Positions 929 to 58,178 of a stretch of 64,000 nucleotides of DNA are shown piece after piece. Source of the DNA: Candidatus Dojkabacteria bacterium (GTDB taxonomy: Bacteria > Patescibacteriota > Dojkabacteria > SC72); contig JAQVKD010000001.1 of NCBI GenBank assembly GCA_028694805.1, positions 25,549-89,548 on the forward strand. The letters are read 5' to 3'. A model generated the notes under the pieces. That model had not been told where the DNA came from, made no database searches, and saw only the letters and a program-made list of their open reading frames with translations. Each line of letters starts with the position of its first letter. The stretch's first letter is position 1. Made by a program: the position numbers and the translations under genes.

Positions 929-1648
929 TTACCTCGTTGTTAGCATAACATATTCCTCAAGGTCAGGTCTGTATAATTCTAATTTTGGAATTTTCTTTTC
1001 TGTGAGTTGTTCAGTAGTTAATGATTTTATTGGTTTAAATATATATGATTTATTTGTTTCAACATTATGGTATAGAAAATGATATTTTGGCAGATAATAT
1101 ATTTCATCTGCTGCTGTTCCTACTTGTTGACGAATTTTTATTATGTCAGTCTCTAAGCTGAGTGAAAATATAAGTAAGTGCTCTGATTCAGATATTAGAG
1201 TATTATGAATATCTCTTGGTCTCTGACTTACGTTTATAATTCCAACATTATATGAACGTCCTTGTGTTGCTATTACTTTATGCCAATACTGTATCTTAGA
1301 AGGTGTTGTTATTAAAGCTGCTTCGTCGACATATAATGAGTTATCTTTCGAGTCAAAAATTATTTCACAGATACTATTAAAATCTCTGTCAGTAAGGTCA
1401 TCAGGCTGGTAAAGGATTTTATTGTATTTGGTTATGTTCTTTTTTAGTTCTCTTGGAGTATTTATTACTATATCATGTTCTACATCTGTATTTTCATGTT
1501 TAATATCCCAAAACACATATTTATCATAGTGCGGCAACAACCAATTTTTTGCTAAATGTGTCTTTCCTGAACCAGTTCTTCCAAATATTGCTACACGGTC
1601 ATTTGTTCTTATTCTTAAGTTATCTATTATAGTGAAATCAGTTACCAT
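929..1648 (-). CDS. P-loop ATPase, candidate genome-packaging ATPase (FtsK/HerA or A32-like)
   Basis: Walker A IFGRTGSGKTHLA near the N-terminus, Walker B LYVDEAALI about 85 aa downstream, and a QRPRD motif. The 239-aa size is typical of PRD1/A32-type packaging ATPases. Confidence 0.55.
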   Translation of the reverse strand: MVTDFTIIDNLRIRTNDRVAIFGRTGSGKTHLAKNWLLPHYDKYVFWDIKHENTDVEHDIVINTPRELKKNITKYNKILYQPDDLTDRDFNSICEIIFDSKDNSLYVDEAALITTPSKIQYWHKVIATQGRSYNVGIINVSQRPRDIHNTLISESEHLLIFSLSLETDIIKIRQQVGTAADEIYYLPKYHFLYHNVETNKSYIFKPIKSLTTEQLTEKKIPKLELYRPDLEEYVMLTTR

Positions 1649-11538: not shown

Positions 11539-11571
11539 CTTTGTTCTCAATATTCTAATTTATTAATTTCA

Positions 11572-21002: not shown

Positions 21003-22094
21003 TCAACCTGATATTATCATTAGACCAACAAGTGCTGCTCCGCCTAATAATAGGACTGCTTTATTTGTACATCCAAAAACAGGAATATATACATCACTTG
21101 ATAATGGACAAGTACCACCAAACAATCCTCCACTAAATTTGTTTAATATTAAATTTGGTAATTCTATATGTGTACCATTAAATCCAAGTGCCCATATTCC
21201 TATTCCAGCAAGATTTTTTTGATTAACTACATCATATTTTAATGATAATGACTGAGCATCATCATACCATCCTTGACCTGTTCCTGTAAGGTAATATGGT
21301 GATGACCATGTAGAGTTCCATTGTCTTCCGTATATTCCTGCTCTTATTAGTGCATTATTATAAGTGACAGATATACCAGAACCTATCGTTGGTGAATCTG
21401 GTTGTTGAGTTTGTGTTGTCCACTCATATCCGTAGTACGGAACTCCTAATAATAATTTAGAGTTCGGTATTGATTGTAGATATGTATTAATGCTATTTAT
21501 AACAGATGGTAATGGTGCAACTGCTCCTGCTGTCGGACCAGAAGCCCAGTGATAATCGTACCCCATCAGCATGAAATAATTTACATATGGTGATAAAGCA
21601 CTTGTATCAAATACATTTTCCCAATCTACTGGTGGAATATCTACTGATATTTTATAGTTACTATTTATTGAATGAAGTGCATTACTTAAAGATGTCATGA
21701 AAGTTGTAAACAATGTTCTATTTGATTGACCATTTACTGGATTAGTAGTTGGAAATCCTTCAAAATCAATATCTACTCCATCAAACCCATGTGTTTGTAC
21801 TTCGTATACTAGATTATTTATAAGAGTACTCTGGAGACCAGGAGATGATAGTATTGTATTTATAACAGGCGCTCCCCATCCAGGATTAACTGAAACTACC
21901 ACTCTTGTTCCTCTTGAATGAGCATAATTAATAAGATTTGTTGGAGGATATGATGTTTTAATTAACGAACCATCAGAATTCACTCCAAGAAAAGACCATG
22001 CTATCGTTGTTAATGTATTGTAATTTAAAGTTAGATAAAGATCTGATGACAACCAATTAGGATAGAATCCCATTACTTCTTTTGATAACGCCAT
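21003..22094 (-). CDS. GH18 chitinase-like glycoside hydrolase with C-terminal TM anchor
   Basis: FDGVDIDFE matches the GH18 active-site signature [LIVMFY]-[DN]-G-[LIVMF]-[DN]-[LIVMF]-[DN]-x-E. LMGYDYHW also present. C-terminal LLLGGAALVGLMIISG. Confidence 0.75.
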   Translation of the reverse strand: MALSKEVMGFYPNWLSSDLYLTLNYNTLTTIAWSFLGVNSDGSLIKTSYPPTNLINYAHSRGTRVVVSVNPGWGAPVINTILSSPGLQSTLINNLVYEVQTHGFDGVDIDFEGFPTTNPVNGQSNRTLFTTFMTSLSNALHSINSNYKISVDIPPVDWENVFDTSALSPYVNYFMLMGYDYHWASGPTAGAVAPLPSVINSINTYLQSIPNSKLLLGVPYYGYEWTTQTQQPDSPTIGSGISVTYNNALIRAGIYGRQWNSTWSSPYYLTGTGQGWYDDAQSLSLKYDVVNQKNLAGIGIWALGFNGTHIELPNLILNKFSGGLFGGTCPLSSDVYIPVFGCTNKAVLLLGGAALVGLMIISG

Positions 22095-22142: not shown

Positions 22143-23540
22143 TCATCTTATTGCAATAAGTACTAGAAATATTCCTATTGTTGCAAACATGTAAGTTTCT
22201 TTCTTTATACATGTTCCAAAGAAATTTATATCGTTCGGTGAACATAATGTTAGTGGTGGTGTAATACATGCTGTTTGACATTCCTGAAGAGTTGAATATT
22301 GACCAGACGTTCCCTGTACTTGTACGCATTGATTGTTTATACAATTATAAGTTATTGTTGGGCATTGTACTCCAACAGTTGTACATTCATTAGTTCCAGG
22401 TCCAGAAACTTGAGCACATATATTATTTTGGCATATGTTATGATATTGACTAGGGGTACATATTTCTCCGCATGTATTTTCTGTGAAGCAACCTACAATT
22501 CCAGGAATACATATTGATGGAGTACAAATGTTATTTATACATTGATATGTTTGTATAGATTCACCAGAAAATTTATTTATAATTAAATTTGATAATTCTG
22601 TATGTGGAACATCATATCCCAAAGCCCATATTCCAATTCCTGCAAGTTGTTTTTGATTAACAAGATCATACTTAAAATTTAGGGATTCGGCATCTTCATA
22701 CCATCCTTGGTGCCACTGATTTCCTGTCTTATAAGTGTAATATGGCGATTTCCATGTAGAGTTCCACAGTCTTGTGTATTGTTGAATCTTTGTAACTGCT
22801 TGTGAATACATGAATGATGTTCCTGTTCCTATCGTTGGTGAATCTGGTTGTTGAGTTTGTGTTGTCCATTCATATCCATAATATGGAACTCCTAACAACA
22901 ATTTAGTTTTTGGTATTGACTGTAGATATGTATTAACGCTATCTACGACAGATTGTAATGGTGCGACAGCTCCTGCTGTTGGACCAGATGCCCAGTGATA
23001 ATCGTAACCCATCAGCATGAAATAATTTACATATGGTGATAAAGCACTTGTGTCAAATACATTTTCCCAATCTACTGGGGGAAGATTGATTGACAATCTA
23101 TAATTAGGATTTGCATTCCAGAATGTATTGCTGAGTTTTATTATAAAATTGGTGAATAAACTTCTGTTATTAGAACCATTTACCGTATTTATAGCTGGAA
23201 ATCCTTCTAAATCGATATCTACACCATCAAATCCATTTGTGCTTACTTCATATAATAAGTTATTTATAACTACATTTTGAATTGATGCACTTGCAAGGAT
23301 ATTATCTATTATTGGTGATCCCCATCCTGGATTTATAGAAACTACTACTTTCTTTCCTTTTGAATGTGCATAGTTAATGAGATTTGTCGGAGGATATGAT
23401 TGTTTAACAAGAGAACCATCTGACTGCACACCAAGGAAAGCCCATGCTATTGTTGTAATAGAGTCATAATTTAAATCTAGATATACATCTGGATTTAACC
23501 AGTTTGGAAGAAAACCAATAACTTCTTTTGATAATACCAT
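22143..23540 (-). CDS. GH18 chitinase-like glycoside hydrolase, Cys-rich knot region plus C-terminal TM anchor
   Basis: FDGVDIDLE signature. About 200 nt is identical to 21003..22094. A 90-aa Cys-rich segment, then FATIGIFLVLIAIR. Confidence 0.75.
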   Translation of the reverse strand: MVLSKEVIGFLPNWLNPDVYLDLNYDSITTIAWAFLGVQSDGSLVKQSYPPTNLINYAHSKGKKVVVSINPGWGSPIIDNILASASIQNVVINNLLYEVSTNGFDGVDIDLEGFPAINTVNGSNNRSLFTNFIIKLSNTFWNANPNYRLSINLPPVDWENVFDTSALSPYVNYFMLMGYDYHWASGPTAGAVAPLQSVVDSVNTYLQSIPKTKLLLGVPYYGYEWTTQTQQPDSPTIGTGTSFMYSQAVTKIQQYTRLWNSTWKSPYYTYKTGNQWHQGWYEDAESLNFKYDLVNQKQLAGIGIWALGYDVPHTELSNLIINKFSGESIQTYQCINNICTPSICIPGIVGCFTENTCGEICTPSQYHNICQNNICAQVSGPGTNECTTVGVQCPTITYNCINNQCVQVQGTSGQYSTLQECQTACITPPLTLCSPNDINFFGTCIKKETYMFATIGIFLVLIAIR

Positions 23541-23562: not shown

Positions 23563-24549
23563 TTATTTCTTGAACATTGATAACATAAACAACGCTAAGA
23601 ATCCAATTCCCCCGTACTTTACATAGTTCTTAGGAACACACGTACCAAATACACAATAATTCGTGTCAGATGGACATGTAACCGGATCGCATGTAGCTCC
23701 TCCTCCACCACCTCCACCTGTCGGAACGCATGTACCTGTTGATGAACAATAATATCCTGATGGACATACTCCTGTTAGACATGTGGGTGAGCATGGTGTG
23801 ACTCCTGGTGTACATCCTCCTCCTGACGGAACACATGTACCTGTTGATGAACAATAATATCCTGACGGACATACTCCTGTTAAACATGTAGGTGAGCATG
23901 GTGTGACTCCTGGTGTACATCCTCCTCCACCACCTGATGTAAGTGTTATATCATCAAATACAACAGTTCCAGAACCATATAAGAATAAAATTACATTCAC
24001 TGATGCAGCATTTGATGGTGCTGTACTTGATACTGTCATCTGCGACCAATCAGAGGTCCCTGTTTTTGGAGTCGATGTAGATGCACTTCCTGATATATAT
24101 TGATTACTCGAATCAAACCAATCTAATTCAAGAAAGGCACCTGTTCCAGCTACTGATGTTGTTTTTACATAACCTGTTAAAGTGTATGATGTTGATGGTG
24201 ATACTCCTGAAATTCTCTGTCCCCAATAATTTCTTCCACTAGCCGATGCAACTATTGCTGCTCCTTTTCCTGTTCTTCCAGGAAGATCTGAAGGACTGTT
24301 ATATGGAAATGATGCTAGTGCTCCTCCTGCTGGATCATAATCACTCCACCAATTAGCAGGTTGGTATTGAGCAGTTGGACTTACAGTTTCAAATCCAGGA
24401 TTCTGAACTAAATTCGCTTGTAAACTTTTGATTGATTTACTGGATGATGAACATTGACCCTGAGCCTTAATTATTGCTTTCTGTCTTTCGTTTGGTGTTG
24501 AGTACCATATACGAAAATTTTCTCCATTTAATGATATTATCTCATTCAT
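23563..24549 (-). CDS. CBM-like (CBM4/9-type start) protein with 2x 38-aa Cys repeat and CVPKNY-TM C-terminal module
   Basis: LVQNPGFETV...WW resembles a carbohydrate-binding-module start. Exact duplicated GGGCTPGVTPCSPTCLTGVCPSGYYCSSTGTCVP. C-terminus TCDPVTCPSDTNYCVFGTCVPKNYVKYGGIGFLALFMLSMFKK. Confidence 0.55.
   Translation of the reverse strand: MNEIISLNGENFRIWYSTPNERQKAIIKAQGQCSSSSKSIKSLQANLVQNPGFETVSPTAQYQPANWWSDYDPAGGALASFPYNSPSDLPGRTGKGAAIVASASGRNYWGQRISGVSPSTSYTLTGYVKTTSVAGTGAFLELDWFDSSNQYISGSASTSTPKTGTSDWSQMTVSSTAPSNAASVNVILFLYGSGTVVFDDITLTSGGGGGCTPGVTPCSPTCLTGVCPSGYYCSSTGTCVPSGGGCTPGVTPCSPTCLTGVCPSGYYCSSTGTCVPTGGGGGGGATCDPVTCPSDTNYCVFGTCVPKNYVKYGGIGFLALFMLSMFKK
23718..23937 (-). 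repeat. Two tandem copies of a roughly 110-114 bp unit (coding, Cys-rich module)
   Basis: Near-identical DNA copies encoding GGGCTPGVTPCSPTCLTGVCPSGYYCSSTGTCVP. Confidence 0.85.
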
Positions 24550-24648
24550 ATACTTAATCCTCCATTAATAACTTGCTATGTTCTATATGTTCACCACGCA
24601 GTAAATCATTCTATATTTTACTTTTCTTTCTTTTCCTCTTTTTCCCTT

Positions 24649-25119
24649 TTACGTTACACTGAGATTAGCAACTGGTGCAGTGCATGGTGCCATTACATTA
24701 ACATAACATGATTCTTCATTTTGTAAAGACCCTGTTGGACAACTATCTGCTACTATCACACCTACCTTGAGTTGACCATCAACATTTGTTATGTCCTGAG
24801 TAACTGTTGTATAAGTTAGAGTGTTTGACGCTTGATTTTGTGTTCCTAACCATATAGGAGTTGTTGATCCTGGAATCATCTTGTAGAACGAATAATTATA
24901 TGGTGATGTTCCGCTTGTAGGATTTGAAGTAAGTGTTAAAGTTTGTCCAACGACTTTTGACCCGACACATGTCGGTGCCATAGATAGTATTATATCATTT
25001 GATCTATTTCCACACGCCGAGCACTGACTCTGTGCTTCTTGCAATGCATATTGTCTTTCGCTTGGGGTTGAGTACCATATACGAAAATTCTTTCCGTTTA
25101 GCGATACTATTTCATTCAT
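24649..25119 (-). CDS. hypothetical Cys-containing protein, N-terminal paralog of 23563..24549
   Basis: MNEIVSLNGKNFRIWYSTPSERQ versus MNEIISLNGENFRIWYSTPNERQ. About 70 nt are nearly identical at the DNA level. Confidence 0.5.
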   Translation of the reverse strand: MNEIVSLNGKNFRIWYSTPSERQYALQEAQSQCSACGNRSNDIILSMAPTCVGSKVVGQTLTLTSNPTSGTSPYNYSFYKMIPGSTTPIWLGTQNQASNTLTYTTVTQDITNVDGQLKVGVIVADSCPTGSLQNEESCYVNVMAPCTAPVANLSVT

Positions 25120-25173
25120 AATGTTATGTCCTCCTTCTTTAAATTTTTCCTTTCTTGATTTTAATTTTATATT

Positions 25174-26298
25174 TTAACTCGAACTTAGTGTCATTAATAC
25201 AACAATGCCTAGTCCTGCTGCTAATATCACATAAGGCGAGCTAAAAACACTAGGAAGTGTTGTAGGTTGTGAATTACAGCTTAGAACTGATGCAGATTGT
25301 TCAAATCCAAATTTAACACATAACTGCTTCTCTATATTTGTTGCTTTGCATGCTATTGATGTTGTTCCATTGTCATTTCCAGCAAAATTTAGTCCCACTG
25401 CATTATTCATATTTGATGTTACCCACATACTTCCAGAATCTCCTGGTTGTGATACTGGTATTGTTGGATTTGGATTTGAAATAACTAAAACATCATCAAA
25501 TGGAATCACTAATGTTGTTCCGCCAACTGTATATTCAACATCAAAAGATGAATTTGTAGATTCTACAATTCCGTCCATACATCCAGTAGTTCTTCCTGCT
25601 TTTTTAACTTTCATTCCTATGCTTGATGTAACACTTTTGTTGGTATATAAGTTACAAATATTTGGTTCTGAAATTGCTATTGAATTTATATCTGCAGTAG
25701 GTGCAGCATAAGCAGCGTCAATAGTATTTTTAGTGAGTAGCAAACGAACCGACTTTTCTAATGTGCCTGCTAAATTACTGATGTTTCCTCCATCAATATT
25801 TCCTGGTTGTATTATTGGCTCTCCTTTTAATCCTTTATATGGCATTGATTCAATGTCCCATGCTAATACATGATTATTTGATAGTATAACAGTTCTTCCT
25901 ATATTATCTCTGACAAAACATCCAAGAGTTCCAGTGATACTTAACTGACTTCCGTATAAGCCTCCGCTGATTCCTCCTAATATTGGTCTATGTTTGTCTT
26001 TGAACTGTAAAGTTTTCATTGAGTTCCTTGAATCATTATTTAATTTTGATCTGTCTCTCACTTCTACGAACGCACGCATTTCTGTTTTTCCTGTTATTTT
26101 ATATACTATTGGTATTCCATAAATAGATCTTGGAATAAGGTTTTGTAGTATTGGTGTTTTATCTTTTAAGTATACAACTATTTGATGTTCATTTCCAAGT
26201 CCTGTAACTGAACTATGTGTTAATCCGACACCTACAACTCCAGGAATCTTCTTTAGCTCTGATTTAGCCTTTTCAAATGCATCCTGATTATAGGACAT
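25174..26298 (-). CDS. trypsin-like (S1-family-like) serine protease with C-terminal TM anchor
   Basis: ILSNNHVLA (His) and QPGDSGSMWV (GDSG-type Ser). C-terminal PYVILAAGLGIVVLMTLSSS. Confidence 0.55.
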   Translation of the reverse strand: MSYNQDAFEKAKSELKKIPGVVGVGLTHSSVTGLGNEHQIVVYLKDKTPILQNLIPRSIYGIPIVYKITGKTEMRAFVEVRDRSKLNNDSRNSMKTLQFKDKHRPILGGISGGLYGSQLSITGTLGCFVRDNIGRTVILSNNHVLAWDIESMPYKGLKGEPIIQPGNIDGGNISNLAGTLEKSVRLLLTKNTIDAAYAAPTADINSIAISEPNICNLYTNKSVTSSIGMKVKKAGRTTGCMDGIVESTNSSFDVEYTVGGTTLVIPFDDVLVISNPNPTIPVSQPGDSGSMWVTSNMNNAVGLNFAGNDNGTTSIACKATNIEKQLCVKFGFEQSASVLSCNSQPTTLPSVFSSPYVILAAGLGIVVLMTLSSS

Positions 26299-26338
26299 AT
26301 TACCTGACGTATGTAGAAGTTAACGTATATTATTATTC

Positions 26339-28183
26339 TTATATTGAGCTATTGAAATATATTTTATAATCTGTTCCTGTCACGATTGAATATAATTTAT
26401 TATTGAATACAGCAAGACCTGGTGATGTATAGGATTTTCCTCCTATTGAAGTGTTCCATCCCTTCCATACTCCATTGGTTCCCATGCTATTAATGTATAT
26501 ATCATAAGGTGAGCCCTTTCCACTTACTACTGCATATAATCTATTATTGAAAGATGCCAATCTCGGACTATCGTATGAACCTCCTCCTATTAAATTACTC
26601 CATCCTGACCATATTCCATTTGTTCCCATACTAGCAGTCCATATCTTATAATCTATTCCCGATGTAATTGCATATAATCTATTATTGAATACAGCAAGAC
26701 CTGGTGATGTATAGGATTTTCCACCTATTGAAGTGTTCCATCCTGACCATACTCCATCTGTTCCCATACTATTAATATATATGTCATTAGGATAACCCTT
26801 TCCGCTTACTACTGCATATAATCTATTATTAAAGACCACTAAATTTGGACTGTTATACGAACCTCCTCCCATTGAACTACTCCATCCTGACCACAATCCA
26901 TTTATATTCATACTAGCAAGCCATATTCTATAATCTGTTCCTGCTACAATTGCATATAATCTATTATTGAATACAGCAAGACCTGGTGATGTATTAGCAT
27001 ATCCACCTATTGAAGTATTCCATCCTGACCATACTCCATTTGTTCCCATACTATTAATGAATAATGCATAAGGTGAACCTTTTCCACTTACTACTGTATA
27101 TAATCTATTATTAAAGACCACCAAATTTGGACTGTCGTATGAACCTCCACCTATTGAACTGCTCCATCCTGACCACTGCAATGGAGTTACGTTTACTGAA
27201 ATAACATTTGAATAAATACCTGTAACTGAATCATATGGTCTTACATTAAGACTTCCTTCCTCATTTCCTTTAACATTCCCAGTACTATAAAGGTCTACAC
27301 AACAATTACTGCTTCTTGACCATGATAATGATGGACACGATATAACTGATCCAGAACTATTCTTACATACCACTCCAGCACTCCTTGTCTGTCCGACACT
27401 AATAGTTAGAGATGGCGGAGCAGTCATTGATGCCAAAGCTGATGGTTGAGTAACTGTCACTGTACAAACATTCCCTTGTGAACCAGAAACTGAATCATAT
27501 GGTCTAACAGTTAATGATCCTACTGCTACACCTTCGACAGTTCCATCAGTATATAAATTTACACAACATGAACTACTTCTTGACCATGATATTGATGGAC
27601 ACGTTACATTAGAACCAGCACTATTCTTACAAACAACTAAATTTACTTTCTGTCCAACACTGACTGATAAACTTGGTGGTATTGAAATCGATGATACTGT
27701 TGCTGTAGGAGCTGTTACATTTATAAAACATTTCTGTTCTTCAGGGACTTGTCGTGCTGTACATGAATCTCCTACAAGTAACTGAAACGTATGACTTCCT
27801 ACTGCATCATTAAATGTTCTACTCCATGATTGAGGTGATGTTGAACTATTACTCCATGTTCTTTCAGTTACTGCGTCTACTATAAATTCAAATTTATAGG
27901 GAGGTGTTCCACCGGATGCTTGAACTGTGATTGTCTTCGTTGTTCCTTGTACTATTGATGATGGGCACGACGCCAGTGATTCCACAAAAGAGAAACTGTT
28001 GGAGTCATTAACATTTGATATATTTTGAGAAGAAATGATATCATTTAAGTCGGTAACAGATATAAAATCCTTGTACATAGAACTTATATCTTCAAGCTTA
28101 TAACCATTTCTGACAGCCTCAATTAAAACGTCAGTTGATAAGTTTACTATATCTTCTACCTTCAATACTTTATCTATGCTCAT
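26339..28183 (-). CDS. multidomain protein: He_PIG-like Ig domain, 2x Big-like domains, 6-blade lectin-like beta-propeller
   Basis: SGGTPPYKFEF Ig motif. Two CKNSxGSxxxCPSxSWSRSS modules. Six repeats of WSGWxxxIGGxSYxSPxLxVFNNRLYA. Confidence 0.6.
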   Translation of the reverse strand: MSIDKVLKVEDIVNLSTDVLIEAVRNGYKLEDISSMYKDFISVTDLNDIISSQNISNVNDSNSFSFVESLASCPSSIVQGTTKTITVQASGGTPPYKFEFIVDAVTERTWSNSSTSPQSWSRTFNDAVGSHTFQLLVGDSCTARQVPEEQKCFINVTAPTATVSSISIPPSLSVSVGQKVNLVVCKNSAGSNVTCPSISWSRSSSCCVNLYTDGTVEGVAVGSLTVRPYDSVSGSQGNVCTVTVTQPSALASMTAPPSLTISVGQTRSAGVVCKNSSGSVISCPSLSWSRSSNCCVDLYSTGNVKGNEEGSLNVRPYDSVTGIYSNVISVNVTPLQWSGWSSSIGGGSYDSPNLVVFNNRLYTVVSGKGSPYALFINSMGTNGVWSGWNTSIGGYANTSPGLAVFNNRLYAIVAGTDYRIWLASMNINGLWSGWSSSMGGGSYNSPNLVVFNNRLYAVVSGKGYPNDIYINSMGTDGVWSGWNTSIGGKSYTSPGLAVFNNRLYAITSGIDYKIWTASMGTNGIWSGWSNLIGGGSYDSPRLASFNNRLYAVVSGKGSPYDIYINSMGTNGVWKGWNTSIGGKSYTSPGLAVFNNKLYSIVTGTDYKIYFNSSI

Positions 28184-28202
28184 ATGTTCTCCTCTTTATT
28201 AA

Positions 28203-28880
28203 TTATTTTAACAACGATAACAGAGTAATTGCAGTAAGTCCTAATCCAGCATATACTACATACGTTTTTGGAATACAATTTCCTGCTACACAATAATTTT
28301 TAGTGAGGTCACATTCTGGAGGACAATCACTTATTATAACAGGACATCCTGTATCACATGATGCTAAATCTGGATATTGACCAGTAGTTCCTGATGGTGC
28401 AGGCTGACAGTTTCCTGGACTTATACAATTATATCCTCCACCTGGTACTGGAGTAACATTTATAATGCAAGAATCTGTATTACTTGTTTTTGAACCTGAT
28501 GAACATGAATCTGTTACATATACAGAAACAACATAATTCCCTAGTAAAGAAAATGTATATGGTATTGATGATCCTGTTAATGATGTATCAATTACTCCTC
28601 CTGGTTTTGTTATTGACCAGTGATAAGTATAAGGAGGAGTTCCTGATGATGCTGATGCCGTTAAAGTTTTTATAGTGTTTTGTAAAAGTGAAGATGGACA
28701 TGCTGCAAGACTTTTTACTGATACTTGTTTGTTTATTTCATTTACATTATATGATTCATTTAATCTATAACCTTCTCTGTATAGCTTCTCCACTGATTCT
28801 ATTGATGAATTAGTTATGTCTTCTACACCAAGAGATTTAAATTCAATGTTCATAATATTATTATAGTTATTTTCCTGCAA
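28203..28880 (-). CDS. Ig-like (SGTPPYTYHW) protein with CxPK-TM C-terminal module
   Basis: N-terminus is paralogous to 26339..28183. C-terminus CPPECDLTKNYCVAGNCIPKTYVVYAGLGLTAITLLSLLK. Confidence 0.55.
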   Translation of the reverse strand: MQENNYNNIMNIEFKSLGVEDITNSSIESVEKLYREGYRLNESYNVNEINKQVSVKSLAACPSSLLQNTIKTLTASASSGTPPYTYHWSITKPGGVIDTSLTGSSIPYTFSLLGNYVVSVYVTDSCSSGSKTSNTDSCIINVTPVPGGGYNCISPGNCQPAPSGTTGQYPDLASCDTGCPVIISDCPPECDLTKNYCVAGNCIPKTYVVYAGLGLTAITLLSLLK

Positions 28881-29271
28881 AGTTATACTGTCTCAGTCTT
28901 CCTCTTCCAGTTCTAGCTTCAAAACTGCTATCTTTGTATAGATTTGCATTTAAATCACTGGTCTGACTGTCAACACTCATATTATTTAATTCTTGTTCTG
29001 AAAGAGGTTTCCATGTTCTAATATCACTACTTAAATGTGCAGATGGAGCAGATATACAACAACATTTTGGCGTTAATATACCACAATCTAAATATCCTGG
29101 AGCACAACTCTCGAAATATCCTCTAGAATACTCCGGACCTTTAGGACATTCTGGAGTACATACACTAGGAGAACATGGTTCAGTTATTATTCCCATTGAT
29201 TTTAGTATATAGTATGATAATACAATTCCTCCTCCGTAAAGGATAATTGTTCCTGTATCACTTCTTGCCAT
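28867..29271 (-). CDS. TM protein, WKPLSEQELN-motif family, Cys-rich
   Basis: ...SSDIRTWKPLSEQELNNM... internal motif. N-terminal TM. Confidence 0.5.
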   Translation of the reverse strand: MARSDTGTIILYGGGIVLSYYILKSMGIITEPCSPSVCTPECPKGPEYSRGYFESCAPGYLDCGILTPKCCCISAPSAHLSSDIRTWKPLSEQELNNMSVDSQTSDLNANLYKDSSFEARTGRGRLRQYNFAGK

Positions 29272-29272
29272 A

Positions 29273-30148
29273 TTAATCTCTCCCTCCCATCATCATTAAT
29301 AAAAGAAATCCTGCAGCTCCTATAAATAAATAATTTTTAGGAACACAGTTTCCAAGTATACATAAATTTTTATCTGAAGGACAAGTTGCCGGATCGCATC
29401 CACCTCCGGATGGTGGTATTGTTTCTTGTACTTTTACAATTACAGTATTTGGTAAGTCAGAATCAGAAGTCAAACAATGTTCAGCACCTGACCATGCACA
29501 ACACCATCTACAAACAAGTGTATATGTTCCTATAACATTAAGGACAAACGATGTTGATCCACATCCATTTGCATCAAATACATGCACACCATTATCAACT
29601 CTTATGTCTCCAACTCCTATTGGATTTCCAGATATTGCAACTATTCTCCACTTTGGTGTTATTCCCAAACAATATGCGGTAGTTGACCTTACAGATGCTG
29701 TTAGTAAATCACCAGGTTTTACTATGAGAGAAGACTTTCCGTTCACTAAAAATGAGTTATCTTGTTGTGTACATGTCTGAGAAGTTGTTGCTGTAATAGA
29801 TTTACATCCAGTACCAGATTGACCGTTTGAACTACATATAGTATTTCCGCTTGCATTATATATTACAAACCACACTATGGTATATGTTCCTGCAGGAACA
29901 GGTTTAATAAATGGTTCTGATATAAATGTTCCTGATGTCTGACCGATTACAGTGGTCATTAAAGGTGTGAAGAAACTAAAATAAGCTCCAGTTGGCAATT
30001 GAATTTTTAGTTCTGCCTTATACGAAATTCCTCCTTCCCCTGCAGAAAATGAAACATCACATGCAACATTAACAGTATCATTTGAACCAGCATTGCATGT
30101 ATTTCTATTTCCATTTACTGTAAAATAACCTGATGTTATGTTACACAT
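29273..30148 (-). CDS. Cys-rich protein with CVPKNY-TM C-terminal module
   Basis: C-terminus GGGCDPATCPSDKNLCILGNCVPKNYLFIGAAGFLLLMMMGGRD. Confidence 0.55.
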   Translation of the reverse strand: MCNITSGYFTVNGNRNTCNAGSNDTVNVACDVSFSAGEGGISYKAELKIQLPTGAYFSFFTPLMTTVIGQTSGTFISEPFIKPVPAGTYTIVWFVIYNASGNTICSSNGQSGTGCKSITATTSQTCTQQDNSFLVNGKSSLIVKPGDLLTASVRSTTAYCLGITPKWRIVAISGNPIGVGDIRVDNGVHVFDANGCGSTSFVLNVIGTYTLVCRWCCAWSGAEHCLTSDSDLPNTVIVKVQETIPPSGGGCDPATCPSDKNLCILGNCVPKNYLFIGAAGFLLLMMMGGRD

Positions 30149-30167
30149 TTTGTTTACCTCTTATATT

Positions 30168-30938
30168 TCATTTAATCATTTTCAATAAAAATAATGCTAC
30201 AATTCCTGCTCCTGCGTATACAACATATGTTTTTGGAACACAGCTTCCTAATACACAGAAATTTTTGTCAGATGGACATGTAACTGGATCGCACGTAGTT
30301 CCTCCTCCACCTCCTCCTCCTGTCGGAACGCATGTTGTTCCTTGACATATATAACCGGCTGGACACGGTGGAACACATCCTCCTCCACCACTTGACGTGA
30401 AAATAGCGTATAAATTTCCTGATGGCTGTGTTACTGTTCCTGTGAACGGATTTCCTGTTGTACTTTGAGAGCAACTTGCATCTGTACAGTATTTACTAAA
30501 GCTATATCCTGATGAAGGTTTTGCTACAAAGCTAAATACATCATTTATAAAGAAATTGATTGTCTGTGATGTTGTTACTGTTGTTACTTTTCTTGTATTT
30601 CTGTATACATCTACTGTTCCACCTACATTATTTTGAATATATACAGTTATTGTTGCTTGCGTTCCACTGAAATAAACACCTAGATAACCATCTTGTGATA
30701 TTGTTCCACTAAAAGGATTAGAGGTTGTAGATAAAGAACATCCAGTATCAGCACAGAACTTATTAAATGAAAACCCTAGTTGAGTATCAGGATATGCATA
30801 AAAAAAGAACGTATCTCCTACATTGTATTGAACTGGAACTATTCCGTCTCCTGGATTAACTACAGCAACAATACTTCCGTTACGACTTGCTTGAAGAGTT
30901 CCACGTCCTTCAACTATTTCAATGTTTACTGTGACCAT
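30168..30938 (-). CDS. protein with two tandem beta-sandwich-like domains plus CVPKTY-TM C-terminal module
   Basis: Internal duplication: FSFNKFCADTGCSLSTTSNPFSGTISQDG versus YSFSKYCTDASCSQSTTGNPFTGTVTQPSG. C-terminus TCDPVTCPSDKNFCVLGSCVPKTYVVYAGAGIVALFLLKMIK. Confidence 0.55.
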   Translation of the reverse strand: MVTVNIEIVEGRGTLQASRNGSIVAVVNPGDGIVPVQYNVGDTFFFYAYPDTQLGFSFNKFCADTGCSLSTTSNPFSGTISQDGYLGVYFSGTQATITVYIQNNVGGTVDVYRNTRKVTTVTTSQTINFFINDVFSFVAKPSSGYSFSKYCTDASCSQSTTGNPFTGTVTQPSGNLYAIFTSSGGGGCVPPCPAGYICQGTTCVPTGGGGGGGTTCDPVTCPSDKNFCVLGSCVPKTYVVYAGAGIVALFLLKMIK

Positions 30939-30947
30939 TTATCCATC

Positions 30948-31472
30948 CTATATTTTATTTGTTACATATAATTCTAACGACTTTATATATAAAGGTGTGC
31001 TTCCTTTGTATACATAAGTGTAGTTATATACACCATTCCCTTTTACATCATCGGTGTCCCATACCGTTGTAAATACTGTTCCATAATTTGGACAGGAAGG
31101 AAATCCTACATAAATAGGGATTTCGTTATTTACTATTCCTATTGTTGGAAGTGCTGATTGATTATTCACATATGCATATATTTTTCCATAACCTTCGGAT
31201 GTGCTACATACATTATGAAATCGTATATCTACTATATCAATTGTTTTATCAATAGGAAGATTAAATGTTATGTTTAGATTTATAGACTCACCATCATTTA
31301 GAACTAACATATAGGAACGAGACTCTATGAATTGCCAGTGCTTACATATTAATGAATTTACACTTAAAGTATATGTATATTTACTTGATTGAGGTATTTG
31401 TGATGCTGATTTATTCATTAATAGTATGGCACCTAAACCTATAAATCCTGCAATGATCCAATTTTTGTCCAT
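30948..31472 (-). CDS. N-terminally anchored hypothetical protein
   Basis: N-terminal TM or signal sequence IIAGFIGLGAILLM. Confidence 0.45.
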   Translation of the reverse strand: MDKNWIIAGFIGLGAILLMNKSASQIPQSSKYTYTLSVNSLICKHWQFIESRSYMLVLNDGESINLNITFNLPIDKTIDIVDIRFHNVCSTSEGYGKIYAYVNNQSALPTIGIVNNEIPIYVGFPSCPNYGTVFTTVWDTDDVKGNGVYNYTYVYKGSTPLYIKSLELYVTNKI

Positions 31473-31500
31473 TTGATATCATTTATTTTGTTAAGTTTCT

Positions 31501-32355
31501 TTATCGTTTTATTAACATCATTAATAAAAGAAATCCTGCAGCTCCATAAACATATGTCTTAGGTTGACAACCAAATCCTATGAATGATAAACAAAATTCT
31601 TTGGTTGGATCACATGATGGAACGCATCCTTGTGCTCCATCACCTCCTCCTGTACATAAATTATTACAGTTTGATGTCGTATATATACCAGATCCATCAC
31701 AGTTATCTGATATACATTGCGTTCCTATACATTTATATTTTGGAGTTGTACATGAAGGATTACAAACATTATTACAATTTGATGTCGTATATATACCAGA
31801 TCCATCACAGTTATCTGATATGCACTGTGTTCCCGTACATTTATATTTCGGGGTAGTACATGAAACACAAGATCCGTTCTGACATATATTAGTCGATGGA
31901 CATGCGTTACATCCGTATGTGCATGCAGGTTCTCCTAACCACTTGCATATTGTTTTATTATCTGCGCAGTATGTTTGACCACTTGTAGGTTGACATGGTT
32001 GAAATGAACCTACATTAAGTGATCTGCATGAATTAGGCGTTCCTGACGCTTCGCAGTACAGCGGAACTACCTGTACAAGATCAATGAAATAGTTTCCCAC
32101 TGAAGAGAGATAACCTATCACTGCATCAAATATATATGTTCCAGAGGAAGATACGTTCACACTATTACTGTTGACTGATGCATAAGTTCCGTCAGGTTTT
32201 TTATACCTGAACCATACATGAATAGAACCATATGCAGAGTCTGAATATAATCTTGCCTTACATCCAATCAAATCAGAACCAGATGCACTACACGAACTTC
32301 CTGATAACATGACTCCGCTTTTTGTGAATCCATAATCCTGTATTGTACAACCCAT
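31501..32355 (-). CDS. Cys-rich protein with duplicated TTPKYKC(T/I)GTQCISDNCDGSGIYTTSNCNN module and CQPKTY-TM C-terminus
   Basis: Exact 33-aa duplication. C-terminus EFCLSFIGFGCQPKTYVYGAAGFLLLMMLIKR. Confidence 0.55.
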   Translation of the reverse strand: MGCTIQDYGFTKSGVMLSGSSCSASGSDLIGCKARLYSDSAYGSIHVWFRYKKPDGTYASVNSNSVNVSSSGTYIFDAVIGYLSSVGNYFIDLVQVVPLYCEASGTPNSCRSLNVGSFQPCQPTSGQTYCADNKTICKWLGEPACTYGCNACPSTNICQNGSCVSCTTPKYKCTGTQCISDNCDGSGIYTTSNCNNVCNPSCTTPKYKCIGTQCISDNCDGSGIYTTSNCNNLCTGGGDGAQGCVPSCDPTKEFCLSFIGFGCQPKTYVYGAAGFLLLMMLIKR

Positions 32356-32429: not shown

Positions 32430-32603
32430 TTATATTATTCCTTTTTCTCTTACTATTTTCAAAGATTGTAAATCTATCCCTTCGATATCTTCAAGACTTA
32501 TTAATTCAGAACTTCCTAGCTGTCTTAGTACTGGAATCTGATGACTTAATACTATAAATCCTACAGCACCTACCAATACAAGCAACCAGTCTCTGCTTAC
32601 CAT
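32430..32603 (-). CDS. small TM protein, GIDLxSL family (paralog 3; 57 aa), not in ORF track
   Basis: Own translation MVSRDWLLVLVGAVGFIVLSHQIPVLRQLGSSELISLEDIEGIDLQSLKIVREKGII. Confidence 0.45.
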   Translation of the reverse strand: MVSRDWLLVLVGAVGFIVLSHQIPVLRQLGSSELISLEDIEGIDLQSLKIVREKGII

Positions 32604-32639: not shown

Positions 32640-32846
32640 TTATATAAATCCTTTTTGTCTTGCTACATGTAAAGAAACAAGGTCAATTCCTTGAATATTT
32701 TCAAGCTTAATAGTAGATAAAGAATGAGATGTTGACAATGTAGCCGATAGCGAAGAAGCTCTTACCATCCCAGGTGAATATGCTGCGAGTAATACAGCTC
32801 CTAGTATTCCTACTCCAATAAGAATTGCGTCTGTTTTAGTTGGCAC
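32640..32846 (-). CDS. small TM protein, GIDLxSL family (paralog 2)
   Basis: C-terminus LENIQGIDLVSLHVARQKGFI. Confidence 0.5.
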   Translation of the reverse strand: MPTKTDAILIGVGILGAVLLAAYSPGMVRASSLSATLSTSHSLSTIKLENIQGIDLVSLHVARQKGFI

Positions 32847-33104: not shown

Positions 33105-33737
33105 TCATCTCATTCCGTACATCTTATAGATAGGCGAATCTGCCTTGTCCGTTGCCATTTGACCGTAATATACCTGCCTTCTTATTCTCTGGTAATAATC
33201 TTCTGCAGGTAATATTGAAGGTGCTGCGTTAATTCTGTCTATTGAATTAACTTGTGCCATCGATTGCTGATGTGGGATTGCACCATAAGTTCTGTTAGAT
33301 GACTGGTTAGCCTGCTGTAATTGTTGTAATTGTAGTTGTGATTGTTCTTGCTGCATCTGAAGTTGTGATTGTGTTTGAGATAATTTCTGTTGCAATATTC
33401 TGTACTCTTTGCCTTGTAATGTTATGTTTACATTTGCTGGATTAACTCCTTTGTTTGTTAATCTAATAAGAACATCATACCCTACACTTCCTATTGCTGC
33501 TGCAGCTGCTCCATCAAGACCCATCTTAGTAAATAGATAATACAATCCAAGTTTTGGAGCATTATTAGCAGCTCCTGCTATTATTTTATCAGATGTAGCT
33601 GCAGTGTCTGGTAAGTTTGGTTTTATCTGTTGTTCTACATAACGACCGGAAAATCCACTTACTATGAATCCTCCGCCTATTACAGCCATGTCCTTTGCCA
33701 TTTCTGTATATCTTATTCGTTCTCTATATTCTGCCAT
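33105..33737 (-). CDS. YGMR-family protein (Gly-rich N-terminus, Q-rich coiled coil, C-terminal YKMYGMR)
   Basis: MAEYRER...GGGFIVSGFSGR...VLIRLTNKGVNPANV...YKMYGMR. Paralog of 38012..39055. Confidence 0.55.
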   Translation of the reverse strand: MAEYRERIRYTEMAKDMAVIGGGFIVSGFSGRYVEQQIKPNLPDTAATSDKIIAGAANNAPKLGLYYLFTKMGLDGAAAAAIGSVGYDVLIRLTNKGVNPANVNITLQGKEYRILQQKLSQTQSQLQMQQEQSQLQLQQLQQANQSSNRTYGAIPHQQSMAQVNSIDRINAAPSILPAEDYYQRIRRQVYYGQMATDKADSPIYKMYGMR

Positions 33738-34256: not shown

Positions 34257-34997
34257 TTAAAACATCCTTGCATTTTTGTTACCCAATACATTTCTATGTA
34301 ACTTATTCCAAAGTGCTGGAAGTGAAACGTATTTAGTTTTCTTATAAAATTTTATCACTGCATCTTCATATCTATTCATGTCGTATTCTGCTTCTCCTAC
34401 AGTCTTACCTTCTAATAATGCCTTCAGAAACACTAAATGTATGTCACGAAATATATCTTGAGAATGTATACTATCTACAGGAAATAACATTAAATCTGTA
34501 TATCCACTGTAAACTTCAGCTCCATAACGTATAGCACATTTTCCTAATTGACTTGCGCTATAACATGCTACAGTAAACACTATTGTATCTTTTAATAAGT
34601 TGACATTTGTTTCGTTCATACACAATGGATTACAAATATCAGGCATTGCTAAACATGTGTTTACACACCCAGATGAATATATTAAAGGTTTAATTATTTC
34701 ACGTAAATTTGGCATGTTTAGTAACTCATCTATATCAAACTTTCTTGTTATTACACATTCGCTCTGTCCTTGAATGCTAGATGGACATCCATGAGAAAAT
34801 GTAACTACGAGTCTTGGTCTGTAATATTGCAAAGATTTTGTTACATTGTTATATGTGACTTCGTTTTTCTTTATGTCGATAACAGTGTAACCATAGCTTT
34901 TCATCATCTTGTATGCTTTCTCAGCCCAGTCATATGTATGAATTGTTGGATCGTTTTCCTTTCTAGGTCTTAAAAGAACTATTGTTGAATTATTCAT
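34257..34997 (-). CDS. putative caspase-like (clan CD) cysteine peptidase
   Basis: VVTFSHGCPSS (His-Gly) and VFTVACYSAS (Ala-Cys) resemble the clan CD catalytic dyad context. The fold assignment is inferred. Confidence 0.3.
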   Translation of the reverse strand: MNNSTIVLLRPRKENDPTIHTYDWAEKAYKMMKSYGYTVIDIKKNEVTYNNVTKSLQYYRPRLVVTFSHGCPSSIQGQSECVITRKFDIDELLNMPNLREIIKPLIYSSGCVNTCLAMPDICNPLCMNETNVNLLKDTIVFTVACYSASQLGKCAIRYGAEVYSGYTDLMLFPVDSIHSQDIFRDIHLVFLKALLEGKTVGEAEYDMNRYEDAVIKFYKKTKYVSLPALWNKLHRNVLGNKNARMF

Positions 34998-35016: not shown

Positions 35017-35556
35017 TTATTTCAGCTTCAATTCTTCTTTCCTAAAGTTTTCATTTATTACTTTATCTACATTTAAGTATAACTCCTCTTCGTCTCCTTC
35101 ATTTTTTTCAATTAAGATATTTTCAATATCAACAAATTGTTTAGCTTTATGTTGACAATTTGTTCCAGGATTGTTTTTTATCATACAAGTTACTTTTCCG
35201 TCCTTCGGTGAACCTATACAACTAACATCGTTTTGTTCATGGCAGTTACTGAATATGTCTAGTGCACTTGGTTCATCTGATGATGTTGTAACATGACTAT
35301 GAAATGTACCAACGGGTTTTTTTCCTCTTTCTCTGCATTCTGACTGAAATTTTATGTATCTTTCTTCACTATGAGAACTCTGAGAATGTTCTTGACCAGG
35401 ATATATCTTACTAGTTTTTTCATCAAGACATAAAGTAAAACCGTGTTCTTTATCAGTATCTTGAGTCTTTTCTATTAGCTTACTCATCTTTAATACTGTA
35501 GTGTCAGAAAAGACATATTTTCCAATTCGTTGATCTCTATGTTTGTTAGTTTTCAT
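35017..35556 (-). CDS. JAB/MPN+ (JAMM) metalloprotease-domain protein
   Basis: EHGFTLCLDE ... HSHVTTSSDEPSALD (E...HxHx8Sx2D). Confidence 0.6.
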   Translation of the reverse strand: MKTNKHRDQRIGKYVFSDTTVLKMSKLIEKTQDTDKEHGFTLCLDEKTSKIYPGQEHSQSSHSEERYIKFQSECRERGKKPVGTFHSHVTTSSDEPSALDIFSNCHEQNDVSCIGSPKDGKVTCMIKNNPGTNCQHKAKQFVDIENILIEKNEGDEEELYLNVDKVINENFRKEELKLK

Positions 35557-36152: not shown

Positions 36153-36617
36153 TTATTTTTTACCCATCATCAATAAAGCTAATACTCCACCACCGACTAT
36201 TAAATACTTATTTTGAACTCCTGCAGTACAACCATTCCATATTCCTGTTCCGCATTCAGTAGCTGCTGTTGGGAAAGAAGATATAGCACTATCTACTACA
36301 GGTTGAGGAAGCGTGTTATCAGATGCAGGTGTTCCATCCTTATTTGTCTTTTCTATTGTAATTCCATTACAATCTATTGTAATCCCAGGAGTTTTCACTA
36401 CTGTTATCAAATAATTATAATTTGGATCTGACTTATTTACATATGCAAGTATATATACTGCAAAAACCGAAACCTCATACCATCCATCACCAACGTATAT
36501 ATTTATATGAGGGAGACTTACTACAAGCTTTGAATCTATTGTTTTATTTTTAATAGCATCAATAATTTGTTGCTCTCGTGGAGTACATGTCTGCAGAGAA
36601 TTATATTTATAGTTCAT
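36153..36617 (-). CDS. hypothetical protein with C-terminal TM anchor plus KK
   Basis: C-terminus YLIVGGGVLALLMMGKK. ATG at 36615-36617; the track start is TTG. Confidence 0.5.
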   Translation of the reverse strand: MNYKYNSLQTCTPREQQIIDAIKNKTIDSKLVVSLPHINIYVGDGWYEVSVFAVYILAYVNKSDPNYNYLITVVKTPGITIDCNGITIEKTNKDGTPASDNTLPQPVVDSAISSFPTAATECGTGIWNGCTAGVQNKYLIVGGGVLALLMMGKK

Positions 36618-36778
36618 CAATATTCCTCCTGTAAAATTTTCTCAATACTCTTTAACTTTTTTCCTATTTCACTATCTGCTTCTATTTCTTCTTCTAGTTG
36701 ATCTACAGTTAAAGTAGTTGCTCCTGCACATATCTTCGTGTTCTCTAAATCATCACGTGTCAACTTTTCGTACTTCAT
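36617..36778 (-). CDS. small acidic protein (53 aa), not in ORF track
   Basis: AAGGAG SD. MKYEKLTRDDLENTKICAGATTLTVDQLEEEIEADSEIGKKLKSIEKILQEEY. The stop overlaps the downstream start (ATGA). Confidence 0.4.
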   Translation of the reverse strand: MKYEKLTRDDLENTKICAGATTLTVDQLEEEIEADSEIGKKLKSIEKILQEEY

Positions 36779-37335: not shown

Positions 37336-37950
37336 CTAACTTGTCCAGAGGTCAACTTCAAGAGCAAACTTGATATGGGTAGTGTCTATCTGTATATCAG
37401 GTAATATAGGTCCACCTGTTGGACTTTCACCGACTACATACAAGAACCAGTGCTCTTCACCATTCAACTCAATTCCTTGAGTGAATCTGTAATATTCACT
37501 ACTGGTCTTAAACTGGTGACCAAGCTGAGTACCGACTGCTGCTATTCTCTGTTTAGTTATTGACACATCCTGGTAGAATGGTCTTGCTAACTGAACAAGG
37601 TCTTCAGTTGTTTTCTCTTTGGTGATTCGTATTTTTGTCAGTGGACTGATTTCCTGATCTGTTGTGCCTGCAAGTCTGACTCTCAGTGCATGCGCAGTGT
37701 TGAAATCCTGTCCTGCAGGTACTTGCTGAGTACCCATAATTGACATCTTCTGCCCAGCTGGACATCTCACATCAATAACAGCAGTTGTATTTCCTACTGG
37801 TCCACCTGTCAAAGTTACTATTCTTGTGTTCTTTTCATCAAGAACAATCTGTGATCTTCTCCATCCCAAGCTTTCCAGATACTCCACATAAGAAGTATAG
37901 TCCGGTTTAGCACTTCTTCCGTAAGCCTGCATTGAATTTATTTCTGCCAT
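37336..37950 (-). CDS. putative structural protein, PLTKIRITK family (paralog 1 of 3)
   Basis: VIDVRCPAGQKMSIMGTQQVPAG...PLTKIRITKEKT...GPILPDIQIDTTHIKFALEVDLW aligns along its whole length with 43332..43976 and 42530..43090. Confidence 0.55.
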   Translation of the reverse strand: MAEINSMQAYGRSAKPDYTSYVEYLESLGWRRSQIVLDEKNTRIVTLTGGPVGNTTAVIDVRCPAGQKMSIMGTQQVPAGQDFNTAHALRVRLAGTTDQEISPLTKIRITKEKTTEDLVQLARPFYQDVSITKQRIAAVGTQLGHQFKTSSEYYRFTQGIELNGEEHWFLYVVGESPTGGPILPDIQIDTTHIKFALEVDLWTS

Positions 37951-56548: not shown

Positions 56549-56563
56549 GTTTTTAATTCCTCC

Positions 56564-56812: not shown

Positions 56813-56831
56813 TTTATCTCCTCCCTATTTG

Positions 56832-58147: not shown

Positions 58148-58178
58148 TTTATGTTCCTCCCTTATTATGTTGTCTTGT

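Follow-up and report, generated by a model that had tools for sequence, protein, structure and literature searches.

Why do five cysteine-rich proteins end in almost the same forty residues, and what would such a tail do for the element that encodes them? The question is raised by a stretch of 64,000 nucleotides (the window), which is part of a 128,474-bp contig deposited within a 'Candidatus Dojkabacteria' metagenome-assembled genome (MAG). Five open reading frames (ORFs) of the window, all on the minus strand, share a C-terminal module of the form C..C..C..C-[VIQ]PK[NT]Y, followed by 14-19 uncharged residues and K/R. An initial annotation had already described them, and their coordinates were confirmed. 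They are listed below, with the E values given by a hidden Markov model (HMM) of the tail.

23563..24549, minus strand: 328-aa protein with an N-terminal MNEIISLNGxNFRIWY, a CBM4_9-like beta-sandwich (weak CBM_4_9 Pfam matches), two 6-Cys repeats, a G7 linker and the 4-Cys module at 23566-23691, CDPVTCPSDTNYCVFGTCVPKNYVKYGGIGFLALFMLSMFKK (E 1e-20); its ortholog P0002, 59% identical, retains the module.
28203..28880, minus strand: PKD-domain protein (PKD E 1.9e-5) with an N-terminal 'LYREGYRL', a 4-Cys Y-x-C repeat and the 4-Cys module at 28206-28325, CPPECDLTKNYCVAGNCIPKTYVVYAGLGLTAITLLSLLK (E 2.3e-19); the start is probably the ATG at 28853 (216 aa, matching the public call) and not the TTG at 28880.
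29273..30148, minus strand: 291-aa Cys-rich protein with a GGG linker, the 4-Cys module at 29276-29398, CDPATCPSDKNLCILGNCVPKNYLFIGAAGFLLLMMMGGRD, and a tail ending in RD (E 4.7e-19); its C-terminal half is orthologous to P0016 in JBINOC010002893.1.
30168..30938, minus strand: 256-aa protein with two beta-rich repeats, an internal CxxCPxGYxCxxxxCVP hairpin, a G7 linker and the 4-Cys module at 30171-30293, CDPVTCPSDKNFCVLGSCVPKTYVVYAGAGIVALFLLKMIK (E 1.9e-20).
31501..32355, minus strand: 284-aa protein with 10% Cys, two copies of a TPKYKCxGTQCISDNCDGSGIYTTSNCNN repeat and a divergent 4-Cys module at 31504-31626, CVPSCDPTKEFCLSFIGFGCQPKTYVYGAAGFLLLMMLIKR (E 3.5e-15).

Alignment of the last 40-42 residues of the five proteins leaves nine invariant columns (four Cys, two Pro, K, Y and G). 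The consensus initially put forward is exact in three of the five tails, which read CDP[VA]TCPSD[TK]N[YFL]C[VI][FL]G[TSN]CVPK[NT]Y, while those of ORF 28203 (CPPECDLTKNYCVAGNCIPKTY) and ORF 31501 (CVPSCDPTKEFC...GCQPKTY) are variants of it; similarly, the G-rich linker reported upstream of the module is found in four of the five ORFs and is missing from one. The module-coding 3' ends share only 53-72% of their nucleotides in pairwise comparisons, which marks them as old paralogs, whose similarity was kept at the protein level, and not as recent copies.

Cysteine-rich mini-repeats also occur in the interior of ORFs 23563-24549, 31501-32355, 22143-23540 and 28203-28880. A recurrent unit, 'Y-x-C-x3-4-C-...-G-x-Y-x-[ST]-x3-C-x3-C', is present in many proteins carrying the module, the CTPGVTPCSPTCLTGVCPSGYYCSSTGTCVP repeat occurs twice within ORF 23563, and the internal CxxCPxGYxCxxxxCVP unit is similar to the terminal hairpin.

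To establish how far the module extends, a library of 1.84 billion representative proteins was put through an exhaustive search with a profile built from the five tails, at a threshold of E<=1e-3. The tail search proposed in the initial annotation thus returned 62 representatives, 14 of them at E<=1e-10 (E 3e-22 to 1e-10); in 59 the module stands at the extreme C-terminus of very different proteins, ranging from 47 to 525 aa. A likeness among Cys-rich, hydrophobic C-termini might have arisen by chance or low complexity, with no common origin, and three of the 62 matches (P0008, P0022 and P0056) are in fact repeat proteins, which cover just part of the profile. The position of the module in the other 59, the full-length matches down to E 3e-22 in a library of that size, and the nine columns that are invariant despite the low DNA identity of the five paralogs all speak against this explanation. 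A profile of the 59 tails was also run over all window ORFs of at least 25 aa, in six frames: it matched the five ORFs (E 1e-20 to 3.5e-15) and two glycoside hydrolase family 18 (GH18) ORFs (E 2e-4), all on the coding strand, and gave no significant match in non-coding frames or on the non-coding strand of the window. On these E values a product of chance or low complexity is ruled out, and we give it practically no credence.

No family matching the module was found when full proteins and ten isolated tails were scanned against Pfam and NCBIfam at E<=10. The module is new as a recurrent C-terminal element, as initially claimed; a described CTERM sorting domain, named at the time as the result that would overturn the claim, was looked for in both collections, of which NCBIfam contains the models of such domains, and not found. 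There was likewise no match among 185,579 bacterial and archaeal species genomes (GTDB, one genome each), nor when one module protein and one isolated tail were compared by tblastn with 50,697 phage and archaeal virus genomes. Nor did the five-tail profile match anything in a word-indexed set of 5.8 billion proteins, the profile being too short for that index. A scan of JGI metagenomes for the module gave only two loci.

The 59 library members allow the anatomy of the tail to be described. After the last Cys and [VI]PK(x) come 14-19 uncharged residues (median 16), and 56 of the 59 proteins close with one to five K/R. Four Cys lie within the last 21 residues before the helix in 50 members; the other nine have a simpler form, mostly with two Cys (C-x11-13-C), as in QCDPNTQINIPSLGCVPKNY. 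Conservation is stronger in the hairpin and the PKxY collar than in the helix. An AlphaFold2 model of the last 70 aa of the ORF 30168 protein, built from the five paralogs only, places a hairpin at residues 40-49 and a 20-residue helix at 50-69, with low confidence (pLDDT 63.6). The term 'knot-like', used initially for the Cys module, is too strong for this arrangement, in which a beta-hairpin runs straight into a helix. Proteins of 46-52 aa, made of the module and nothing else, also exist (P0043, P0059 and P0060, and L008 12924-13064), and the tail is therefore an autonomous unit.

The module proteins have no signal peptide, as had been stated from the start. Each ORF in the list begins at the first start codon after a stop, so that none can be hidden upstream. 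The most hydrophobic 17-residue stretch within the first 40 residues scores between -0.21 and 0.95 on the Kyte-Doolittle scale in the five proteins, versus 2.4-3.0 for window proteins with genuine signal peptides or signal anchors (7978-11550, 56027-56548, which has a lipobox, and 59996-61675). It is the presence of such canonical signals elsewhere in the window that makes their lack meaningful here. Among the 59 library members one has a hydrophobic N-terminus, and that one is a module-only protein of 52 aa; a second, moderately hydrophobic stretch was seen in only two. The module proteins thus have the form of tail-anchored proteins, with a single transmembrane (TM) segment within about 30 residues of the C-terminus and neither a signal peptide nor other membrane segments. 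The form noted in the initial annotation, a juxtamembrane motif with a short helix and a basic end, fits a membrane anchor.

Four further window proteins had been noted to end in a TM segment:

22143..23540, minus strand: GH18 glycoside hydrolase (Glyco_hydro_18 E 3.2e-38), FDGVDIDLEG intact, with Cys-rich repeats and a 2-Cys module variant at 22146-22244 (tail HMM E 2.1e-4); this 2-Cys form is also found in P0050, P0052, P0053, P0058 and P0066.
21003..22094, minus strand: GH18 of endo-beta-N-acetylglucosaminidase type (Glyco_hydro_18 E 9e-41; EndoS TIM-barrel and GH85 matches above their cut-offs), with a 2-Cys module variant at 21006-21110 and no basic end (tail HMM E 2.1e-4).
25174..26298, minus strand: trypsin-like serine protease (GDSGS; weak Nal1_C match), with a C-terminal hydrophobic anchor alone at 25177-25245, lacking the Cys hairpin and giving no significant match to the tail HMM (E 0.4); the syntenic L002 ortholog is likewise TM-ended.
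36153..36620, minus strand: 155-aa protein with a loose variant, C-x7-C, NKY, hydrophobic helix and KK (36156-36254), which the tail HMM does not match significantly (E 0.69).

All four do carry a C-terminal anchor. For the GH18 pair this description falls short, their tails being 2-Cys variants of the module; the protease does not score as a module member, and 36153..36620 is a C-terminal anchor and was not counted as one either.

The passengers are joined to the tail by linkers rich in G or in P/T. Among relatives the PKD architecture of ORF 28203 is the commonest, and GH75, PG_binding_1, propeller-like repeat and Big_2-like domains are also found. Judged from sequence, the catalytic motif (DxDxE) is intact in both window GH18 ORFs, and the predicted repertoire is that expected of proteins binding and degrading the host envelope.

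The nature of the element bears directly on what the tail may do. Every substantial ORF of the window lies on one strand, at a GC content of about 33%, and neither tRNA nor housekeeping genes were seen across it. Two gene products are informative:

929..1648, minus strand: FtsK/HerA-type genome-packaging ATPase of the kind found in membrane-containing icosahedral viruses (full-length match to STIV B204, E 2.6e-4).
37336..37950, minus strand: capsid protein with a vertical single jelly-roll fold, which marks the virus type (paralogs at 42530-43090 and 43332-43976).

The STIV B204 packaging NTPase is the best solved relative of ORF 929-1648, whose tblastn matches are packaging ATPases of PRD1-like, Bacillus, Vibrio and Haloarcula membrane-containing viruses. 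Because capsid fold and packaging ATPase are both encoded, the element is assigned, on its gene content, to the viruses of the vertical single-jelly-roll lineage. A Borg-like element, a tailed phage and a cellular island had been considered, and were dropped once these two genes had been identified. Other products include a D5-type primase-helicase, glycosyltransferases, beta-helix and tail-spike-like proteins, PEGA domains, an S8 subtilase and two JAB-domain proteins. About 20 membrane proteins are single-pass and none is polytopic, with at most three hydrophobic segments per ORF.

All characterised viruses of this lineage have an internal lipid membrane (PMC12643093; PMC6414509); the genomes of known members are put at about 30 kb (PMC12643093). 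The capsid gene of the window was found on contigs of 90, 92.5, 128, 173 and 179 kb, 3-6 times longer than the known genomes of sphaerolipovirus type. Two of the capsid-bearing contigs were released as 'viral scaffolds' by a landfill metagenome study (PMC12607003), and 170 capsid clusters in public metagenomes, from landfill and other sources, show that these viruses, known from metagenomes only, are common there. Pattern scans of IMG/VR with a module protein, ORF 38012-39055 and the capsid alignment gave no matches, and literature searches, which were not exhaustive, returned no account of a large-genome clade or of the module. The viruses of the window apparently form an undescribed clade with large genomes, three capsid paralogs and a PRD1/STIV-type ATPase, on contigs of 90-179 kb.

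The genes carrying the module lie together in a single block, amid capsid, PEGA and tail-spike-like genes, and this block is syntenic in JBINOC010002893.1 (92.5 kb; ten members, six strong and four weak), in JBINNZ010004791.1 (179 kb, 29% GC; six members, among them a GH75 enzyme and a module-only protein of 46 aa) and in L006, a shorter contig with three members; the module is also present in the short contigs L002 and L007. No module member was seen in the 13-21 kb examined of L010, L014 and L015, whose capsid genes are 58-70% identical to that of the window. Most module genes have their own Shine-Dalgarno-like motif 6-9 nt upstream. Such motifs precede many window genes, and do not separate bacterial from euryarchaeal or DPANN-type hosts. 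Binning assigned the window to a MAG of candidate phyla radiation (CPR) bacteria and two short capsid contigs to Pacearchaeota and Micrarchaeota (DPANN) MAGs; this is weak evidence of the host, since those contigs carry viral genes alone and the bins reflect composition or coverage. Compared with phage genomes, the D5 helicase gave just generic 29% matches to Streptococcus phage primases, uninformative on the host.

Because the genome belongs to a membrane-containing virus, insertion into a viral membrane, one of the possibilities raised in the initial annotation, becomes the best reading of the tail. We consider it somewhat probable that the module is a permanent C-terminal tail-anchor in the internal membrane of a large uncultivated virus, shared by a set of diversified proteins. 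The module proteins would be made in the cytoplasm, with no signal peptide, and secretion would be unneeded, since particle assembly takes place within the cell. The short helix at the C-terminus, which is about 15-19 residues long and has a conserved Y-G-G/A-x-G face, would insert post-translationally into the membrane patch destined for the virus, its one to five terminal K/R finishing on the lumenal, DNA-facing side; the passenger would then stay on the cytoplasmic side, which becomes the outer, capsid-facing side of the virus vesicle. The Cys-stapled beta-hairpin and the [VI]-P-K-x-Y collar would be placed at the membrane surface. There the two, being conserved across unrelated passengers, are probably recognised by a common viral partner (capsid, vertex or membrane protein), or else drive oligomerisation. 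A common partner or self-association is also suggested by the stronger conservation of hairpin and collar relative to the helix and by the stand-alone mini-proteins. At entry, with the membrane of the virus exposed or extruded as happens in PRD1, the passengers (in the window two GH18, lectin-like and PKD/Ig-like proteins; in relatives GH75, peptidoglycan-binding and propeller-like ones) would bind and cut the host envelope.

Several observations weigh against such an anchor in the virus membrane. By the positive-inside rule, the charges flanking the helix (one K before it, one to five K/R after it) favour a passenger outside the cell. It is unusual for Cys-rich domains of extracellular type (PKD, CBM, GH18) to lie on a cytoplasmic face, and passengers of 150-450 aa, far larger than the internal-membrane proteins VP10 and VP13 of related viruses, may fit poorly between membrane and capsid. 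The Cys count is even in 32 of the 59 members and odd in 27, so that even numbers are not in excess, a neutral outcome as a test of disulfide bonding. Finally, the hydrophobic run is short for a bilayer, and the module model, at pLDDT 63.6, is of low confidence.

The charges and the extracellular type of the passengers (GH18, PKD, CBM-like, PG_binding_1) would better suit a tail that holds proteins in the membrane of the infected cell, with the passenger outside and the basic end inside. Such proteins might reshape the surface of the cell, prevent superinfection or make ready for egress; their passengers would be cytoplasmic, or else exported through their N-terminal motifs by an unrecognised route. 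The conserved N-terminal motifs could be a non-classical targeting signal, 'LYRQGYRL' being present in 18 of the 59 members as opposed to none of 125 controls. These motifs are, however, hydrophilic and vary by subfamily; no hydrophobic N-terminal signal is present, and no export machinery was found among the scanned window ORFs. The module genes, moreover, lie within the structural block, beside the capsid genes, and a wall-degrading enzyme on the cytoplasmic face of the membrane would lack its substrate. Anchoring in the infected-cell membrane is, on balance, unlikely.

The N-terminal motifs recur in several forms. 'LxVExLxxMSFDxLLSLYRQGYRL' was observed at the frequency given above, and also in ORF 26339-28183, which has no TM segment; the carriers of N-terminal motifs include window ORFs 23563-24549, 24649-25119, 26339-28183 and 28203-28880, as well as P0013, P0017, P0024 and P0030-33. 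'MNEI[IV]SLNGxxF[RK]IWY' is present in window ORFs 23563 and 24649 and in proteins P0002, P0023 and P0048. 'W[KET]PLSxx[EQ]LN' is found near the C-terminus of small, N-terminally anchored proteins (window 6343-6789, 7293-7985 and 28867-29271), and elsewhere is fused directly before 'YxxGY/F' at the N-terminus of module proteins (P0014, P0042 and P0052). The hydrophilic N-terminal motifs could be docking or incorporation signals.

The tail might alternatively be a cleavable sorting signal of LPXTG, PEP-CTERM, PGF-CTERM or GPI type, cut at the Cys hairpin and PKxY by a transpeptidase which attaches the passenger to lipid, wall or capsid; the enzyme would be host-encoded, or would be the product of the following ORF, to which the initial annotation had tentatively assigned the processing:

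34257..34997, minus strand: conserved 246-aa His/Cys protein, H69-G70 and A144-C145 invariant in three orthologs (a short pattern only).

The tripartite layout (signature motif, short helix, basic end) has the look of such signals, and a hydrophobic run of only 14-19 residues is short, as in CTERM signals. In ORF 34257-34997, H-G and A-C follow hydrophobic stretches, in a clan CD-like pattern, and the clan CD enzymes GPI8 and PorU process C-terminal signals. On the other side, all these systems require a signal peptide, which is missing here; no NCBIfam or Pfam CTERM model matched at E<=10, even when tails alone were used; the window encodes no polytopic membrane enzyme; and module-only mini-proteins would carry no passenger to sort. 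No dedicated sorting enzyme appeared beside the module: Pfam scans, which covered the window ORFs, contained no sortase, exosortase or rhomboid family. As for ORF 34257-34997 itself, it has no membrane segment and no match in Pfam, NCBIfam or PHROGs, and searches of PDB by sequence and profile gave only spurious glucocorticoid-receptor matches (E>0.1). Its orthologs also occur on L010, L014 and L015, where no module was seen in the stretches examined, which argues against a dedicated processing role; it is probably outside the anchor system, and only a putative peptidase by its sequence pattern. In all related contigs examined it is adjoined by the JAB/MPN-domain paralogs 35017-35556 and 35560-36105, standing side by side. 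Nothing supports sortase-like processing, be it the PGF-/PEP-CTERM-style sorting or the cleavage by the clan-CD-like protein suggested in the initial annotation; we hold a sorting signal of any of these types to be improbable.

A wider proposal may also be made, which we regard as speculative though conceivable: the tail would be a virus-specific loading signal, whose collar is read by a viral partner that installs swappable envelope enzymes and adhesins on the internal membrane or via the vertices. The clade would then be an unrecognised sphaerolipovirus-like one of 90-179 kb, possibly infecting DPANN archaea or CPR bacteria, a TM-less C-x-x-P-...-L-x-V tag would offer alternative docking, and the whole would amount to a new protein-targeting system, more than a simple anchor in the membrane.

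The TM-less C-terminal tag has the general form '...C-x(1-3)-P-x(3-6)-[LM]-x-[IV]-x', as in APCTAPVANLSVT, GCPTLSISLSVQ and CNNPVLSMTIN. It occurs at window 24649-25119, 1673-2923 and 19913-20947, and in L015 9481-12383, L008 16458-19748, L002 and L007, its carriers being beta-helix, GH16 and Ig-like proteins. Enzymes of L015 end in a TM-less C-x-x-P-V-L-S-M-x-I-x where the clade of the window uses the TM module.

Other elements were also noted. Paralogs starting with 'MA[EY]YRER' (window 38012-39055, 33105-33737 and also 5693-6109; L012 475-1365; L013 1088-1933) share a glycine-rich hydrophobic stretch, a Q-rich middle, '[ED]RxRK[YF]G[AF]M' repeats and an end of 'MYGMR', 'MFNMQ' or 'MFGML' type; one of them always lies directly upstream of the capsid gene, and they could be scaffold, tape-measure or membrane-bridging proteins. 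In the two short DPANN-binned contigs the capsid gene is interrupted, by an N run in L012 (1389-1928) and by a frame break in L013 (1893-2602), both probably assembly or masking artefacts. Small N-terminally anchored proteins (window 611-925, 32640-32846 and 32430-32603; L008 13238-13453) carry a C-terminal 'EN[IV][QE]GIDLxSLxxAxQKG[FL]I'. An EncFtn-like (encapsulated-ferritin-like) protein is encoded at window 4361-4672 (E 2e-11), with an ortholog-like 96-aa ORF at L008 12192-12482. The window block 56027-61675 contains classical signal peptides or a lipobox, and C-terminal TM segments with strongly basic tails (56832-57317 and 58179-59804); it coincides with a local rise of GC, which reaches 0.42 at 60-62 kb and is possibly a sign of different origin. 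In related contigs the GT1 glycosyltransferase has a LAGLIDADG intein (L005 1-537; L010 875-3646 and 3741-5492), and in L010 an IS605 OrfB/TnpB-type gene is inserted beside it.

The finding points to an unrecognised virus group with a sphaerolipovirus capsid fold, and the clade itself is probably a larger discovery than the module. If the virus-membrane anchor is correct, a membrane-containing capsid would be armed in a modular way, one conserved 40-residue tail being placed on many enzymes and binding domains. The tail would also make it simple to find, by sequence, the proteins with which these viruses interact with their hosts in metagenomic data, and could serve as a compact tag attaching cargo to membranes.

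Among the closest known systems are the internal-membrane proteins VP13 (8.8 kDa) and VP10 (173 aa) of the sphaerolipovirus HCIV-1, which each have a single C-terminal TM helix and whose N-terminal parts contact penton and capsomers; the counterparts in HHIV-2, also a sphaerolipovirus, have the same arrangement (PMC6414509). They belong to the same lineage, with a vertical single-jelly-roll capsid and an FtsK/HerA ATPase, share the C-terminal TM helix with the module proteins, and VP13 is similar in size to the module-only proteins of 46-52 aa. Sequence similarity to VP10 or VP13 is not detectable, however; these are small helical proteins with neither Cys hairpin nor enzymatic passenger, whereas the anchor described here is fused to enzymes and binding domains of 150-450 aa, as many as ten of them in one genome, and the genomes are 3-6 times larger.

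Classical tail-anchored proteins, clients of Get3/TRC40 or YidC, similarly have one helix in the last 30 residues or so, no signal peptide and a short, often basic end. They differ in having no conserved juxtamembrane motif, while here Cys hairpin and PKxY outrank the helix in conservation. The tripartite C-terminal form is common to LPXTG/sortase, PEP-CTERM/exosortase, PGF-CTERM/archaeosortase, GlyGly-CTERM/rhombosortase and MYXO-CTERM; unlike these, the module is virus-borne and comes with no signal peptide, model match or nearby cognate enzyme. Membrane proteins of the poxvirus mature virion, such as L1, also have no signal peptide, are anchored near the C-terminus and expose cysteine-bonded domains on the cytoplasmic face. 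Poxviruses are eukaryotic viruses with a thiol-oxidase pathway of their own; no gene resembling Erv1, thioredoxin or glutaredoxin was found in a scan of approximately 60 window ORFs.

As regards function, the comparison is with PRD1 P7 and P15 and PM2 P7, lytic enzymes bound to the virus membrane (PMC5380687). The PRD1 vesicle is built from a patch of host membrane loaded with phage membrane proteins, and at entry this membrane is converted into a tube, while the wall is digested by enzymes of the virion (PMC3782422; PMC6356626). Wall-degrading enzymes would likewise be held on a lipid membrane for entry here, if we infer their presence in the virion correctly. The PRD1 and PM2 enzymes are lytic transglycosylases or muramidases, one or two in each virus and with no shared anchor module, as opposed to the GH18 of the window and the GH75 of a relative. 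Membrane anchoring of virion proteins and membrane-bound lysins are thus already known in such viruses; what is new is a conserved module of Cys hairpin, PKxY and helix, absent from the libraries searched, which is reused on up to ten passengers per genome.

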